A stretch of 64,000 nt of DNA, taken from sequence record OZ346151.1; one strand, written 5' to 3'. A program made the position numbers and the translations under genes. The DNA comes from a phage. The notes below the pieces were generated by a model. The model had not been told where the DNA came from and did no database searches. It saw only the letters and a program-made list of their open reading frames with translations. Below are positions 16,992-22,340 of this stretch, one piece after another (position 1 is the stretch's first letter; each line of letters starts with the position of its first letter).

Positions 16992-17049
16992 TTCCGGCAA
17001 ATGATGCAAAATAAGGCCCCTAGCAGGGCCTACAGCGATATAATCACAT

Positions 17050-17085
17050 AAAGGCCATGCAACCGCATGGCCTTTATTATTTTGG
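17050..17085 (+). terminator. rho-independent terminator
   Basis: AAAGGCCATGC-AACC-GCATGGCCTTT followed by ATTATTTT. Confidence 0.7.
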
Positions 17086-17130
17086 CGTTACAGCGGCCCC
17101 AAGGCGCTTAAAAATTTTTTAAAGAAGTAC

Positions 17131-17158
17131 TTGCATCAAGCCCTACAATATGGATAAT
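17131..17158 (+). promoter_or_regulatory. sigma70 promoter (TTGCAT-N16-GATAAT)
   Basis: TTGCAT 17131-17136, GATAAT 17153-17158. Confidence 0.5.
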
Positions 17159-17216
17159 AGGACGTGTCAGGGGGGGGAGGCCCCAATCATTAACCGGATA
17201 GATAGGAGTTAAAACC

Positions 17217-17501
17217 ATGGCTATTGTTACCGCTGGCGATGTAGTAGAAATGGAAGCAAAATACTTAAAAGCGGGTATGCATATCCTACGCAACGATCTT
17301 GAACTGGTCCTGACAATGGTTGACTATAACCCAGGGCAAGATTATCCAAGTGTTGACTACTTTTTTGAGTATGTTGATGAAGAGTTGAAAGAGGATGAGG
17401 CCTATTGCGGTGAGTTCTGCAACTTCTTTTGTCCTGATGAGGTTGTAAAGGTTATCTATCAACCTGGCGTAGCTTTCCCGCTGCACGCTATCAATAAATA
17501 A
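17217..17501 (+). CDS. hypothetical protein
   Basis: 94 aa, RBS TAGGAG. Confidence 0.5.
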   Translation: MAIVTAGDVVEMEAKYLKAGMHILRNDLELVLTMVDYNPGQDYPSVDYFFEYVDEELKEDEAYCGEFCNFFCPDEVVKVIYQPGVAFPLHAINK

Positions 17502-17505
17502 ACCT

Positions 17506-17530
17506 GGCGGGGGCCTTTTCGGCCCCCGCC
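17506..17530 (+). terminator. strong GC hairpin (terminator-like; no U-tract)
   Basis: GGCGGGGGCC-TTTTC-GGCCCCCGCC, perfect 10-bp stem right after stop codon. Confidence 0.45.
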
Positions 17531-17564
17531 TGAAATTATGAAAAATAAAAAGAGGCAAACTATC

Positions 17565-17798
17565 ATGATGGAACAAATTAAACGCGCTGAGGCTATTAAT
17601 GGCAATGTAATCTATTTTGTCAGCAAAAACGAAAAAGGCGTACCCTATGCGGCGGTAATAGTACAGCCTGACGGCGATTATTGGTGCACTGTGTACGGCG
17701 CTTATTCTTTTGGGCGTCCAGTGCATGATAAAATTTTGAAAGTAGCGAACCCTACCGGGAAAAATATTACAGCAGAAAAATTTTTTGAAAAAAGTTGA
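17565..17798 (+). CDS. hypothetical protein
   Basis: ORF track 17538..17798; ATG 17565 after AAGAGG. Confidence 0.45.
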   Translation: MMEQIKRAEAINGNVIYFVSKNEKGVPYAAVIVQPDGDYWCTVYGAYSFGRPVHDKILKVANPTGKNITAEKFFEKS

Positions 17799-17822
17799 CA
17801 TGACCATATAAAACTGTAGTAT
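17795..17822 (+). promoter_or_regulatory. sigma70 promoter (TTGACA-N16-TAGTAT)
   Basis: TTGACA 17795-17800; leader hairpin GGGGC-AACAA-GCCCC 17834-17848. Confidence 0.5.
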
Positions 17823-17874
17823 ATAAATCAAAGGGGGCAACAAGCCCCACCAACCACAAAGAGGATAAAAAATC

Positions 17875-18054
17875 ATGGCTATTATTGCAAAGACCGAGAT
17901 CGTAGGCTTAGATTCTATTCTCCTCGCATATGAGGAAGCTATAGAAATGTATGTGGTTTCCTATGGTGAGTATATCCGTGAATATGAATCTATTGATCTA
18001 GCTTTTGAATGTTATATTCGCCAGGTTAATAAAGCGTACGATGATTATCGTTAA
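17875..18054 (+). CDS. small protein (59 aa), below ORF-track threshold
   Basis: ATG 17875 preceded by AGAGGA; MAIIAKTEIVGLDSILLAYEEAIEMYVVSYGEYIREYESIDLAFECYIRQVNKAYDDYR. Confidence 0.45.
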   Translation: MAIIAKTEIVGLDSILLAYEEAIEMYVVSYGEYIREYESIDLAFECYIRQVNKAYDDYR

Positions 18055-18145
18055 AATAGTTTGACAACAAACAACCATCTAACAAAGCATAATACATAAG
18101 GTGGTAGAATGATCCGCCACCCGGAACAAAGAAGAGGTAAACACC

Positions 18146-18391
18146 ATGAAAAGCAATAAAGGTTATAACGGTTACAAAAACAAAACTCATTGGAATGTAA
18201 GCCTTTGGATTAATAACGATGAGTCATTGTACCGGTTGGCCCAAGGATTTATTAACGCTAATGCTAATCGTAATGATGCGGCGCGGGATATGATGCTTTT
18301 TCTGGAGCTAACCGGACAAGATAAGACCCCGGACGGCTTCAAGTACAGCACTACGGCGATCCGTGCCGCGATGGTTGGAATGAAACACTAA
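18146..18391 (+). CDS. hypothetical protein
   Basis: 81 aa, RBS AAGAGG; last gene of rightward array. Confidence 0.5.
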   Translation: MKSNKGYNGYKNKTHWNVSLWINNDESLYRLAQGFINANANRNDAARDMMLFLELTGQDKTPDGFKYSTTAIRAAMVGMKH

Positions 18392-19524
18392 AAGCACATA
18401 GCCGCCAGATCTCAGAATTTACGTACGCTCACCAGTCTATAGCCTGCTAAGTATTTATTCCAACCATAGAATAACGGAATAGTCAATACCTGCATAAAAT
18501 AATTATTCGTGTAAACTGCATAACATAAATCGGCTAGGATGTCAACATTTTTCGTAAACAGCTCGAAATTATAACGGTGAGTTATAATAAACAGAGAAAT
18601 CTTTAGTCGTCTAATGTTTACTGTACATTACTATACTGACTGGAATCATTAGATGACTAAGAGAAAGATAAGAAATCATTAACAATGCAATTGTTTTATT
18701 CGTAACAATAAGGCAACTATGCAAACGGATGGCATGGCGCGACGGAGTCGCGACATAATATAAAAGCAGTAACCATCACCCCCGTGATAGTTTGTCTGCA
18801 AACTATTAATCAGATCATAGTTGCCTTGTATTTAGTTAATCATGACATAACAAGCAAGGCAACTATAGATCTGCTAATAGTTGCCCTGCTTTTATATTAT
18901 GTCATAGATTATTAGCCTGTTAATTGTTAGTCAGTCAAATCAACAACGTTATCATTTCAGTCTTTATTGTTGTTGATCGTTATTGTTATCATGCAAACGA
19001 ATGGCATGGCTTATCATTTTTGAGTAAACAATCTATACGTGAACAGTGAGGCATGCAATAGTAAGGGCGGGAATAATGAGAGTGTAAACTGTCAAGGGTA
19101 ATGTCAATTATATCAATCGTGTCAGTTATGTCACCATTATGTCAGCAGAGTTTTTCTCCTCTTTGTCAAGTGCTGCATGCCCACACAAATAGTAAGAAAT
19201 ATAATTGTTATGTGCGTAAACAGTAACTCATGTTATCAATCCCTGTATGTATCGCCAGTGGTGCGCATAATGGGTATTATGTTAAATTGCCCGTAATGAT
19301 AATGGTTCTCACAATGATAGGTATTCTCATTCCCCCACACAAAATAGATTGCAAATGTTGTGCCACTATGTGAACGGCCTCACCTATTAATTTGCCTCAC
19401 TGCCTCGATATTTGAGAATTATCATAAGAATGAGAAGTATTCCCATTTCGTCCGCCTGGCAGCACTCCAGTCGCTACGGCTCAGAACAGGGCAGAATTGT
19501 GTCCATTCAGATATTTCTGTCTGG

Positions 19525-20732
19525 CTCTTCAGGTCTGTGTGGGAAAAGTCCACCTCTCTGGCGGGGCATGGGGTCATGACGGGAAAATTGCAGGTCAATT
19601 AAAAAATTTACGTGGTGTATGAAGCGCTCTTCAGGTAAGGCATGTATTATGGGATGAAACCCTCTTCAGGCAATGATATTTGTGGGTGTGATATTTGCTG
19701 GAAAGCCAGATATGACGGGACTCCCGGCGGGGCAGGGGTAGTACAGACAGGGGAAATATGGAGGATGTGGTTAGGTGAATTGATCAGACAGGTAGAGTAT
19801 GGAATATGTTACAGGTATGTTAAATAGGGCGGCTGAATATCTGTAGGATTTGTGTGTAAAATCAAAGACTTAAGTGGTGTTGTGGTATTTTCTATAAATA
19901 ATTCAAGTTTAATAGGTAATATTTGTCTCTATTCGCTTTGTGTGGTAAACAGATTCAGATGAGATTGGTTTACAAGCGTATACATAATATACAAATTAAA
20001 GATACAAGAAACCCCCCTCCCCCTTCGGCTACCATTCACCTTTTCCTCTGACTGGTACTTAAACACTTATTCAGACTCTTCAGGTTATCACCCATATATC
20101 ATATGGCAGTGACTGGTGTCCTCCGGCCCCTCTTTCGTCACCCGTCCGCTTCGCCATGCTAATGCCATAGCCAATGGTTCGGTTGTTCACCCTGTTCACT
20201 CAGGTGTATCTCCATACCCCTTCAAAACGAAGAGAACAGAAAACCCGAATTACTCGGTAAAAGAAAAGAGAAGAACTTAATTTTATCAGGATAGGCAAGA
20301 ATGTCAAGGCATGACTGCTCACTAAACAAGCAAACAGTCATGTGTGGGAGGTAAGTGATTGTGGTGGTAGGAAATTTAGTTGAAAGATGTGTTATAGGTG
20401 CTTCCAGCACTTTAGCCGGGCAGCTAATTGTGTGTCAGTCCAGCGGTTCATCCTCTACTTCACTGAAATCAATGTTCATGGTCTCTTCCCAACCATCGAT
20501 CTCAGCACAAGAGTGGAGTTCTTTAGGGTTTACTCCTAAAGCCTCAGCAACAGAGTCTATATTTAACACCTCTGGCAGGTATGATTCATCAAATTCAAGG
20601 TAAATCAGGCCACGAGTGTTGTCAGCTCCACCAAATATTTCTATCTTCATAAAATCTCCTCTGGAAATGAGAGTGTGAACAGGGTTTTATACGTCCCAAT
20701 GCACAGGAATTATGCACGTTTTCCTCTTCAGG
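19525..20732 (+). repeat. Five dispersed copies of the 9-mer CTCTTCAGG in a noncoding region
   Basis: Copies at 19525-19533, 19627-19635, 19662-19670, 20076-20084, 20724-20732, all same strand. Confidence 0.5.
20435..20650 (-). CDS. hypothetical protein
   Basis: 71 aa; last ORF of leftward array. Confidence 0.4.
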   Translation of the reverse strand: MKIEIFGGADNTRGLIYLEFDESYLPEVLNIDSVAEALGVNPKELHSCAEIDGWEETMNIDFSEVEDEPLD

Positions 20733-22034: not shown

Positions 22035-22340
22035 TCATTCTACAGAGCGTTTGAACAGAATGTCTGCCTCAGACATGTGCTCAACCTCTTCTTCGATTTT
22101 AGCGCGACGTTTTTCAGCCTCATAGCGAATATCGAACTCGGTAGCCACCAGAGATTTGATGAATTTAGGAGAATACAGGTGATCCTGCTTCTCAACGAGA
22201 ATGATATCCTTAATGGCATCTTTCAGATCTTTAATCTGAAGTTGGAGTTCTACCAGTTCTTCGATTGTTTTGCGAAGGCGATCACGCTCTGCAGTGTCAG
22301 AAGGAAGAGAGGTGAACAGTTCAACTTTAGATTTAGCCAT
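22035..22340 (-). CDS. hypothetical coiled-coil protein
   Basis: 101 aa ORF. Confidence 0.45.
   Translation of the reverse strand: MAKSKVELFTSLPSDTAERDRLRKTIEELVELQLQIKDLKDAIKDIILVEKQDHLYSPKFIKSLVATEFDIRYEAEKRRAKIEEEVEHMSEADILFKRSVE

Follow-up and report, generated by a model that had tools for sequence, protein, structure and literature searches.

A non-coding junction between two gene arrays of an rV5-like coliphage as the probable chromosome-end region of a linear genome with a short terminal repeat

The interval 18392-20434, originally described as a non-coding zone in which two gene arrays converge, is very probably the chromosome-end or concatemer-junction region of a phage whose linear genome is packaged, like that of T7, with a short direct terminal repeat (DTR), because the DTR of this phage lineage maps inside it, to 19145-19456. 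It follows from this position of the repeat that the deposited or assembled sequence is a circular permutation. The window, by which we mean the whole 64,000-nucleotide stretch analyzed here (OZ346151.1), represents a terminally repeated linear genome in permuted form, with the short repeat in a single copy, and the two "converging" gene arrays are each transcribed outward, toward a physical DNA end. Judged by its sequence, the phage is an rV5-like coliphage (Vequintavirus); about 120 Vequintavirus genomes match the sequence at 90-97% identity. In rV5, the interval corresponds to a box marked "non-coding" that separates genes 163 and 164 and lies likewise between two convergent arrays; the rV5 genome paper offered no explanation for this box and detected no terminators in it. 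Non-coding junctions with a short terminal repeat are established biology, reported earlier for this genus too; none of the papers examined places the repeat in the rV5 box. Our comparisons of the zone covered 19 Vequintavirus-type zones, two zones from other genera (KPP-1 and PVP-SE1) and one full genome (rV5).

The terminal repeat was traced through records of relatives. The HdK5 and EdH4 records carry an exact 459-bp repeat at both ends (published size 458 bp; PMC6563267), and Gotham has a 459-bp terminal repeat with a single fixed packaging start (PMC7471380). BLAST placed the homologue of this repeat at 19145-19456, with 94-98% identity outside one 149-bp deletion. The segment missing after 19179 is present in 18 of 18 relatives, so that the DTR measures 312 bp in the window and the repeat of this phage may differ from theirs; segments of 141 bp and 50 bp that the same 18 relatives all have are absent from the window as well. 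The rV5 box and the HdK5, EdH4 and Gotham repeats are homologous sequence (90-97% identity) with the repeat inside, which occupies 104973-105431 in rV5. The blank box of this reference genome would thereby be explained, and rV5-type records would be permuted across the true DNA ends. The features of the repeat and its right border are as follows, with a slash at the cut position.

19145-19456, Vequintavirus DTR homologue, 312 bp here (BLAST mapping of the HdK5/EdH4 repeat)
19262-19292, core within the DTR common to three genera, GTGCGYATAAYGKGTWTTATGTTAAAT (MAFFT alignment)
19450-19465, right DTR boundary word GTCCGCC/TGGCAGCAC, cut after 19456 (first base of HdK5/EdH4; end of the CM1 tandem unit)
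19467-19500, indel hot-spot just outside the DTR (identity 0.52)

Several records agree with these borders. The CM1 record contains a perfect 523-bp tandem copy with the same end base as the HdK5/EdH4 repeat, and the Pr121LW and EcoIv14a_Aya records have their first base at the left DTR boundary, 382 bases ahead of the counterpart of position 19380. The left boundary differs between records, being set by a 523-bp repeat in CM1 versus 459 bp in HdK5. Contrary to a DTR, PhageTerm runs on Nextera libraries classed the "bov" vequintaviruses as circularly permuted, and headful packaging was reported for BpE1AUH. These conflicting PhageTerm calls come from relatives with transposase libraries, and clear repeats are seen in KPP-1, Gotham, HdK5 and EdH4. 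Just beyond the right border, the hot-spot 19467-19500 exists in several alternative hairpin-containing alleles among the relatives.

The same arrangement was seen in two other genera, whose zones were located via the published KPP-1 repeat coordinates. KPP-1 (Mydovirus) has a 514-bp DTR that PhageTerm classed as T7-type (PMC9862379); this repeat also sits in a gene-poor convergent zone, and the KP12 record begins at its boundary. PVP-SE1 (Seunavirus) has a homologous, unannotated convergent zone of 2.2 kb. The right boundary word, GTCCGYC/TRGCA, is homologous across Vequintavirus, KPP-1 and PVP-SE1: it reads GTCCGTC/TAGCAC at the PhageTerm-defined boundary of KPP-1, and a homologous word is present in PVP-SE1. 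The papers examined contain no description of this cross-genus word. The left boundary word or region, as read from the sequences, is homologous in the window, HdK5 and KPP-1. Inside the repeat, a core of ~30 nt is conserved over the three genera in a MAFFT alignment of the window, HdK5, rV5, FFH2, KPP-1 and PVP-SE1, and the window and KPP-1 share a high-scoring segment pair at this core with E = 8e-5. A conserved regulator, the homologue of rV5 gp153, was also tried as an anchor and was rejected; gene order differs, and in PVP-SE1, KPP-1 and CR3 it is encoded away from the zone. Packaging signals had been one of the functions proposed for the zone, and this option gains support, since the DTR, and hence both terminase cut sites, would lie within it.

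Among known systems, the zone can be compared with the concatemer junction of T7 and T3. Both have a short exact terminal repeat with fixed ends, and KPP-1 is T7-like by PhageTerm. Arrays of short repeats border the T7 terminal repeat, and a hairpin close to the right end has been proposed as an intermediate in processing. The T7 repeat is 160 bp, whereas the repeats considered here are 312-523 bp. Furthermore, the window phage is a myovirus of ~137 kb, the rV5 annotation contains no phage RNA polymerase, the gene arrays run toward the ends whereas those of T7 run inward from the left end, and there is no sequence similarity. Packaging of T7 needs a junction fragment plus an origin (PMC13236587), and its maturation involves transcription reaching the right end of the junction (PMC3276506); in parallel, both arms and an extra predicted promoter point at the junction here.

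On the left side of the repeat, the zone contains a spacer, a palindromic module bracketed by direct repeats and a variable array.

18392-18751, AT-rich non-coding spacer (33% G+C) after the last rightward gene (composition; alignment)
18719-18738, + strand, 20-bp direct repeat ATGCAAACGRATGGCATGGC, copy 1, bracketing the terminator/palindrome module
18752-18792, - strand, predicted intrinsic terminator for leftward transcripts, a 9-bp hairpin at 18771-18792 followed by CUGCUUUUAUAUUAU (terminator scan)
18817-18866, perfect 12-bp inverted repeat (dG -25.8 kcal/mol, z -7.9)
18852-18903, + strand, predicted intrinsic terminator for rightward transcripts, a hairpin at 18852-18891 followed by CUUUUAUAUUAU
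18991-19010, + strand, 20-bp direct repeat ATGCAAACGRATGGCATGGC, copy 2
19011-19144, hypervariable array zone (Tandem Repeats Finder; alignment to relatives)

The repeats reported here in the original prediction were recovered: the 12-bp perfect inverted repeat ATAGTTGCCTTG/CAAGGCAACTAT at 18817-18828 and 18855-18866, its third copy at 18877, the duplicated block ATGCAAACG(G/A)ATGGCATGGC at 18719 and 18991, and the TGTCA repeats at 19090, 19102, 19120, 19129, 19140 and 19164. A fourth copy of the inverted repeat, at 18710-18720, had gone unnoticed. Termination, another of the proposed functions, is likewise supported, as the palindromes fold as two facing hairpin-plus-U-tract terminators, one of which (the equivalent of 18852-18903) is annotated in the phages Alma and Murica. 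On both strands, a stable G+C-containing hairpin is predicted to be followed by the U-tract CUUUUAUAUUAU. The - strand terminator (18792-18752) has a dG of -16.6 kcal/mol with z -6.2, and none of 200 shuffles was as stable; the + strand terminator (18852-18903) has a dG of -20.3 kcal/mol with z -4.3. Their U/A tracts form an 18-nt perfect inverted repeat (18752-18769 and 18886-18903), and the right arm of 18817-18866 can pair with 18877-18891 instead, giving alternative hairpins. The papers examined do not describe the facing terminators. In FV3 the whole terminator module is missing and one hybrid copy of the direct repeat remains, flanked on the left as copy 1 is and on the right as copy 2 is; the module is therefore dispensable. 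An attenuator was also considered and rejected: the four ATAGTTGCC arms allow alternative 1:2, 2:3 and 3:4 pairings, but only the junction lies downstream to be regulated, FV3 does without the module, and covariation is absent because the arms are invariant.

Between this module and the repeat, 19011-19144 is made of 15-16-bp units (TGTAAAC-type) and TGTCA at a 9-11-bp period. For the TGTCA array, Tandem Repeats Finder gave a period of 9 and 4.7 copies, and the last unit before the repeat (19140-19144) adjoins the left DTR boundary. Identity to relatives is only 0.44-0.75 over this stretch, with many copy-number indels. The spacer at the outer edge is 88-96% identical in 16 relatives, and the genes to its left (17000-18391) are common to at most three of the 16.

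On the right side of the repeat, the zone carries the copies of CTCTTCAGG, blocks of skewed base composition and a predicted promoter.

19525-19533, + strand, CTCTTCAGG copy 1, 69 bp from the DTR boundary (invariant in 19 genomes)
19550-19880, + strand, G-rich block, G 0.28-0.33 and C 0.07-0.15 (composition)
19627-19635, + strand, CTCTTCAGG copy 2, part of the 20-nt repeat ATGAAGCGCTCTTCAGGTAA (invariant in 19 genomes)
19662-19670, + strand, CTCTTCAGG copy 3 (invariant in 19 genomes)
19880-20008, AT-rich stretch, 27% G+C (composition)
20009-20236, + strand, C-rich, almost invariant block (98-99% identity in 16-19 relatives)
20076-20084, + strand, CTCTTCAGG copy 4 (invariant in 19 genomes)
20280-20307, - strand, near-consensus sigma-70 promoter TTGACA-16-(TGa)TAAAAT, leftward, toward the repeat (11/12 matches plus TG)
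20724-20732, + strand, CTCTTCAGG copy 5, in the first intergenic gap of the leftward array, outside the interval (rV5 homologue at 103717)

Five same-strand copies of CTCTTCAGG had been counted in the interval. The shared strand holds; the count does not, as four copies lie inside 18392-20434 and the fifth at 20724. The whole window has seven copies, all on the + strand, two of them within genes (36954 and 45251). The chance expectation of 0.25 is replaced by 0.69 for both strands from dinucleotide shuffles, and the claim that the motif is not there by chance stands, with 0 of 100 shuffles reaching seven. No other 9-mer of the zone is as enriched (Poisson p ~7e-10), and all four copies within the interval stay unchanged across 19 genomes though neighbouring sequence varies. 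The complete rV5 genome has nine copies, against ~0.45 expected per strand, and five of them, among them the homologue of the copy at 20724, fall here, within 1.2 kb beside the repeat; the motif is thus not spread genome-wide at the same density, which would have spoken against a function. The papers examined do not mention the array. The shorter word CTTCAGG recurs on the same strand and the same side of the DTR in PVP-SE1 (+166, +494, +518 and +546) and in KPP-1 (+310); in PVP-SE1 this 7-mer is only ~4-fold enriched over the coding background on that strand, and KPP-1 has only the one same-strand copy and two on the other strand inside the repeat. As to what the motif might be, the suggestion of a late promoter fails, since CTCTTCAGG is unlike the published rV5 motif TggTAaAAtA. 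A Chi-site reading was dropped, with no GCTGGTGG visible in the zone by eye. Recognition sequences of EarI, SapI and Eco57I are embedded in CTCTTCAGG, probably by coincidence.

By position and orientation, the arrays may be likened to the recognition sites of small terminases, which lie near the cut in the cosB R sites of lambda and the pac boxes of SPP1. Short same-orientation repeats would lie ~70-210 bp from a candidate terminase cut: three CTCTTCAGG copies to the right of the repeat and, to its left, TGTCA units with a period of 9-11 bp. Unlike those systems, two further copies of CTCTTCAGG are 0.6 and 1.3 kb away, beyond the usual distance. The gene for the large terminase subunit is outside the window, at 58-61 kb of rV5, and none of the annotations examined identified a small subunit.

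The composition of the right half is also distinctive. Within the G-rich block, the element GGCGGGGCA(T)GGGG occurs twice (19560 and 19726); RNA transcribed leftward across the block would be C-rich and G-poor, and the block is homologous to a G5AAG6-containing stretch beside the KPP-1 repeat (E = 0.002). The C-rich block is 98-99% identical in 16-19 relatives versus 86-98% for the flanking genes. It includes C6TC5 at 20013-20024, which is G5AG6TTT on the - strand, and the ~99%-conserved sequence spans 20009-20350, so as to contain both this run and the strong predicted leftward promoter. Both hexamers of the promoter are kept in 19 of 19 genomes, and the published rV5 promoter list does not include it.

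Based on these elements, we propose a model for the junction. In the orientation of the window, the packaged left end would consist of the DTR, the CTCTTCAGG array, the G-rich, AT-rich and C-rich blocks, the leftward promoter and the - strand genes. The packaged right end would carry the + strand genes, the AT-rich spacer, the facing terminators, the iteron-like arrays ending in TGTCA and the second DTR copy. In replicating concatemers, one DTR copy would lie between neighbouring genomes, terminase would cut at or near 19144/19145 and 19456/19457, and DNA synthesis would duplicate the repeat. The terminators, together with stretches that are C-rich and G-poor to incoming transcripts, may prevent transcription from either arm from entering the junction. 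The TGTCA and CTTCAGG arrays, which flank the repeat on opposite sides, and the DTR core would be putative cis-elements for the packaging machinery or another conserved phage DNA-binding protein; candidate binders of CTCTTCAGG and TGTCA would be the small terminase subunit and a genus-invariant regulator encoded at 22038-22340. Testable elements are the two cut-site words, the DTR core, the CTTCAGG and TGTCA arrays, and the promoter plus G-run, and they open to study T7-style ends in a large myovirus without its own RNA polymerase. The position of the ends bears on the annotation, genome start points and engineering or rebooting of widely used therapeutic and biocontrol phages, in which ends and packaging signals must be kept. 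A wider version of the model is possible, though we consider it rather doubtful: the CTTCAGG array, G-run elements, DTR core and promoter/G5AG6TTT block may form an undescribed cis-module of Vequintavirinae (Vequintavirus, Mydovirus and Seunavirus). Through this module, transcription by the host polymerase would be linked at the chromosome end either to the formation of ends or to replication primed by an R-loop, as a host-RNA-polymerase counterpart of the T7 concatemer junction with a CSB-II-like stop.

The right half could be read instead as a transcription-primed replication origin, which seems unlikely to us. The sequence offers repeat arrays, a predicted promoter, a G-run and a 27% G+C stretch. 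The promoter at 20307-20280 would make an RNA that is G-rich, because the + strand of 20009-20236 has C 0.34 and G 0.16. At G5AG6TTT (20024-20010), before 19880-20008, this RNA would either stall or engage in an R-loop, and it would serve as the primer for a T7-like DNA polymerase, following the logic of the mitochondrial promoter and CSB II and of the T7 primary origin. The promoter matches consensus at 11 of 12 positions plus TG with hexamers kept in the 19 genomes, the 130 bp that follow the C-rich block are 27% G+C, and within the zone no part is better conserved than that block (98-99%). In the 138-kb rV5 genome the G5AG6 run occurs only once, the skew change-point of the rV5 paper (104425-105475) begins exactly at this run, and the rV5 gene products include a primase-helicase and a T7-like DNA polymerase. 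On the - strand at 20027-20010, ~250 nt downstream of the strong predicted promoter and before the AT-rich stretch, GAAGGGGGAGGGGGGTTT is near-identical to human CSB II, GGGGGAGGGGGGGTTTG. CSB II halts transcription irrespective of the polymerase and yields a replication primer (PMC4176368). However, the likeness to CSB II is one of sequence and may be a coincidence; the polymerase and the biology differ, and the run lengths vary among relatives. Moreover, the primer would face a DNA end only ~0.9 kb off, which is odd for a leading-strand start on a linear template, and KPP-1 and PVP-SE1 lack the distal block and have their G-runs on the other strand, beside the repeat.

A second reading takes the zone as a buffer for transcription termination and against collisions only, with no role in DNA ends, and its repeats as terminator or Rho-loading elements. 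The two facing predicted intrinsic terminators are in keeping with it, as is the mirrored base skew, by which a transcript from either arm meets 230-330 nt of C-rich, G-poor sequence; C-rich, G-poor RNA is the composition preferred by Rho. The same skew occurs beside the KPP-1 repeat, but it is weak in PVP-SE1. Since the terminal repeat maps inside the zone, a buffer cannot be the whole story; FV3 is viable without the terminator module, and termination leaves the invariant 9-mer in five same-strand copies unexplained. As a sole function, we regard it as quite improbable.

The conserved right half (19590-20434) has also little probability of representing one or more non-coding RNAs, although it offers a strong, conserved predicted promoter with no gene downstream and a block that is 98-99% conserved without an ORF. 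One candidate would start from the 20307 promoter and another, antisense, from the TGTGTAAAAT element near 19850, with CTCTTCAGG/CCUGAAGAG as an RNA motif. In a search of the whole window at gathering thresholds, Rfam recovered the tRNA cluster at 62 kb and nothing in the zone, and at E up to 10 the zone gave only three chance-level microRNA/snoRNA matches and hence no family of its own. Single-sequence folds of 19990-20275 on both strands were not significant versus shuffles (z = -0.76 and +0.09), nor were alignment folds with column shuffles (z +0.4 to -1.8, both strands), in which substitutions were too few for a covariation test. The sole terminator-like hairpin after the promoter is weak (-4.5 kcal/mol, z -0.8), and indels surround three of the five motif copies. 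Small RNAs, another of the functions first proposed for the zone, thus find no backing in Rfam or in folds, which were no better than shuffles.

The borders of the gene arrays are as first claimed, the last + strand ORF ending at 18391 and the first - strand ORF at 20435, and the view that no convincing ORF lies between them is strengthened. Among the 15 ORFs of 39-80 aa in the zone, none is intact across all 19 related genomes and most are broken in the majority of them, and 10 zone ORFs gave no match to PHROGs or Pfam. That the zone consists of small unannotated protein genes is extremely improbable, as the automatic "hypothetical protein" ORFs of 30-100 aa in ev147, MiataMamis, APCEc02, WM, FFH2, CM1 and Murica vary between records, and the three ORFs intact in 17-18 genomes are confined to near-invariant blocks, two of them being broken in phage WM by a 1-nt deletion. 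A check for host origin, in which 19590-20434 was compared with 5,426 complete E. coli genomes, gave no matches. Scanning IMG/VR for CTCTTCAGG-N15-45-CTCTTCAGG was a poor search design and uninformative, with >120 matches in unrelated contigs, and the 71-aa flanking gene as a query there returned three loci only.

By BLAST, about 120 genomes of rV5-like coliphages (genus Vequintavirus) match the gene-free zone between the rightward and leftward gene arrays (18392-20434) at 90-97% identity. Its counterpart in rV5, flanked by genes 163 and 164, was drawn in the genome paper of that phage as a grey box marked "non-coding"; bidirectional terminators were expected there but not found, and the base skew was reported to change at 104425-105475 (PMC3606486). 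The zone has thus been a known blank since 2013. In the BLAST tables, several relatives' records begin or finish with this region. HdK5 and EdH4 were described as having "short terminal redundancies of 458 bp" (Korf et al., PMC6563267), and Gotham as having "459-bp terminal repeats" with a single specific packaging start (Dias et al., PMC7471380). We found an exact 459-bp repeat at both ends of the HdK5 and EdH4 records, which maps to 19456 down to 19145 in the window and to 104973-105431 in rV5. The first base of the Pr121LW and EcoIv14a_Aya records lies 382 bases ahead of the position equivalent to 19380, at the left boundary of a 459-bp repeat. Independent support comes from the Shigella phage CM1 record (MK962749.1), in which the terminal repeat occurs twice as a perfect tandem of 2 x 523 bp (729-1774), whose unit ends at the same nucleotide as the right boundary, ...CCGTCCGCC; most likely, two virion ends were joined there with the repeat left uncollapsed. 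Compared with all 18 relatives, the window lacks 141 bp (after ~19056), 149 bp (after 19179, within the repeat) and 50 bp (after 19477). Since the alignment places 149 additional bases after 19179 in 18 of 18 relatives, the repeat of the window is 312 bp.

This comparison shows that the terminal repeat of this lineage lies in the zone, and both terminase cut sites are thus located there. With the DNA ends inside the zone, the window sequence is therefore a circular permutation, and both gene arrays are, on this assignment, transcribed towards the physical ends of the virion DNA. Against the assignment, the repeat of the present phage is shortened by deletion, the ends are read from relatives' sequences, and the left boundary is inconsistent between records (459 vs 523 bp). 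Two reports also stand against the assignment, having called vequintaviruses circularly permuted or headful; at least one of them was based on transposase libraries, with which PhageTerm copes poorly.

A chromosome end defined by a terminal repeat is also described in Mydovirus, where Klebsiella phage KPP-1 has a 514-bp repeat (116316-116829) delimited by doubled coverage together with PhageTerm and assigned to the T7 type (PMC9862379). The KPP-1 repeat likewise lies within a gene-poor gap between convergent arrays, and the KP12 record begins at its first base. The window and KPP-1 zones share weak reverse-strand similarity, both between the repeats (E = 8e-5) and between 19667-19762 and the stretch directly outside the KPP-1 repeat (E = 0.002). 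A homologous, unannotated convergent gap of 2.2 kb is present in PVP-SE1, a Salmonella phage (Seunavirus). At the right boundary, the window has GTCCGCC|TGGCAGCAC where KPP-1 and PVP-SE1 have GTCCGTC|TAGCAC (all in window orientation); the left boundary region, TTCTCCTCTTTGTCAAG...AAATTTACAA as read from the sequences, is common to the window, HdK5 and KPP-1. Within the repeat, a 30-nt core, GTGCGYATAAYGKGTWTTATGTTAAAT (19262-19292), is kept in all three genera.

On either side of the repeat, the zone is built from distinct elements. As judged from the end assignment, the left half (18392-19144) is just inside the right end of the virion DNA and the right half (19457-20434) just inside its left end.

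Features flanking the terminal repeat, in window coordinates
18852-18891, + strand: predicted terminator hairpin, then CUUUUAUAUUAU (-20.3 kcal/mol, z -4.3)
18792-18771, - strand: predicted terminator hairpin, then CUGCUUUUAUAUUAU (-16.6 kcal/mol, z -6.2)
Beyond the terminator module, up to 19144: array units, 15-16-bp TGTAAAC-type and TGTCA at 9-11-bp period
19467-19500: indel hot-spot
+69, +171 and +206 from the right repeat boundary: three CTCTTCAGG copies, invariant in 19 genomes, with variable surroundings
19550-19880: G-rich block with two GGCGGGGCA(T)GGGG elements
19880-20008: stretch of 27% G+C
20009-20236: C-rich block containing the fourth CTCTTCAGG copy
20307-20280, - strand: predicted near-consensus sigma-70 promoter, TTGACA-16-(TGa)TAAAAT, at the end of the conserved stretch

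In the left half, the "large palindromes" of the original prediction fold as two predicted intrinsic terminators, each a hairpin plus U-tract, which are shown by this modeling to face each other on one side of the repeat. An 18-nt perfect inverted repeat (18752-18769/18886-18903) corresponds to the U/A tracts of both, and phages Alma and Murica already have an annotation for the + strand terminator. Alternative hairpins are possible because the right arm of the 12-bp inverted repeat is also part of a terminator stem. The 270-bp terminator module is flanked on both sides by 20-bp direct repeats, ATGCAAACGRATGGCATGGC (18719-19010 with the repeats). In phage FV3, one hybrid copy of this repeat is present and the module is missing, which makes the module dispensable; the difference looks like a repeat-mediated deletion, or an insertion in the other phages. 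The zone is most variable past the module, where array copy number differs among close relatives, and the last TGTCA (19140-19144) abuts the repeat boundary.

The original prediction was largely correct in what it observed: the gene boundaries are as claimed, and all the repeats it listed are found in the sequence. Its five CTCTTCAGG copies are indeed clustered on the same strand, but only four lie inside the zone (19525, 19627, 19662 and 20076), the fifth being at 20724 in the next intergenic gap. With two further copies within distant genes, the window holds seven, all on the + strand. While a chance expectation of 0.25 per 64 kb had been proposed, shuffles give 0.69 copies; CTCTTCAGG is the most over-represented 9-mer in the zone (p ~7e-10). 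Of the nine copies in the complete rV5 genome, eight share the strand of the window and one is on the opposite strand; since five of the nine fall within 1.2 kb (103717-104896; ~0.45 per strand expected), the motif is clustered and not scattered genome-wide at the density of the zone. The 7-mer CTTCAGG recurs on the same strand and the same boundary side at +166, +494, +518 and +546 in PVP-SE1 and at +310 in KPP-1, often with a TGTGTGG motif nearby; it is ~4-fold enriched over coding background in PVP-SE1, and the cross-genus statistics are modest. Among the functions suggested earlier, termination and packaging signals hold; that the chromosome ends lie here, which is central, had been overlooked. 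The feature belongs to an already known kind, the chromosome-end region. Previously undescribed in it are the conserved CTTCAGG array and the promoter/G-run block, as well as the boundary words and the core of the repeat.

The absence of a convincing ORF was borne out in an alignment of 19 genomes (the window, 16 GenBank phages and 2 IMG/VR contigs), where 15 ORFs measuring 39-80 aa were compared: not one was intact throughout, and most were broken in the majority. Those intact in 17-18 genomes lie only within near-invariant sequence, and two of the three are broken by a 1-nt deletion in phage WM. PHROG and Pfam gave no match for 10 zone ORFs, Rfam gave no family match for the zone, its folding energies were no better than those of shuffles for single sequences and the alignment alike, and no homologue of 19590-20434 was found among 5,426 complete genomes of E. 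coli.

As in T7-type phages (PMC3276506, PMC13236587), concatemers would carry one repeat copy per junction, terminase would cut at both boundaries and synthesis would duplicate the repeat. The short repeat arrays directly outside each boundary, together with the conserved core, may serve as recognition elements. A transcript entering from either arm meets 230-330 nt reading C-rich and G-poor. This composition favours Rho and could keep transcription out of the junction; the skew is present in KPP-1 and barely in PVP-SE1.

In the right half, 20000-20350 is 98-99% identical in all relatives, compared with 86-98% for the adjoining genes. The 20307-20280 promoter is missing from the rV5 promoters listed in the literature and is directed into the gene-free zone. 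Some 250 nt downstream of this strong predicted promoter, before the AT-rich stretch, GAAGGGGGAGGGGGGTTT (- strand, 20027-20010) is almost identical to human mitochondrial CSB II, GGGGGAGGGGGGGTTTG, which halts transcription irrespective of polymerase and generates a replication primer (PMC4176368). The G5AG6 run occurs only once in the genome of rV5 (138 kb), at the point where the skew change-point published in 2013 begins. Together, these features suggest, by analogy, that GAAGGGGGAGGGGGGTTT may act as an R-loop-primed origin or a quadruplex-type stop. However, a primer from it would be directed at the nearby DNA end, and the distal block containing it is not present in the other genera.

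Two + strand TTTGTGTG(G)TAAA(A/C) elements (19846-19867 and 19934-19955) resemble the published rV5 late-promoter motif TTTGTGGTAAAATA and face rightward, in antisense orientation to the promoter at 20307; in phages A135 and MiataMamis, a deletion has removed the second copy. On the - strand, 22038-22340 encodes a 101-aa protein, phrog_639 "transcriptional regulator" and a homologue of rV5 gp153. Its sequence identity reaches at least 99%, and in most cases 100%, among 115 records from across the genus, and amounts to 42-60% in other genera of the Vequintavirinae. As such conservation is unusually strong for a small early protein, this product is a candidate binder of the conserved motifs.

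Adjoining the end region, the last genes of the rightward array (17000-18391) are common to at most 3 of 16 relatives and form an accessory-gene hot-spot; its final ORF (18146-18391) encodes a DUF7249/phrog_871 protein, and homology starts again exactly at 18398. Nineteen "UNVERIFIED Campylobacter phage" GenBank records (MG0656xx, e.g. A135) are ~90% identical to the coliphage region and classified as Vequintavirus; probably, their host labels are wrong or the stocks were contaminated. Inside the tRNA cluster, ARAGORN predicted a 99-nt tRNA-like gene with a four-base anticodon (atcc) at 62554-62652, which scores 35.5 bits with the Rfam tRNA model; seven tRNAs were counted by Korf et al. (PMC6563267), compared with six annotated in rV5.
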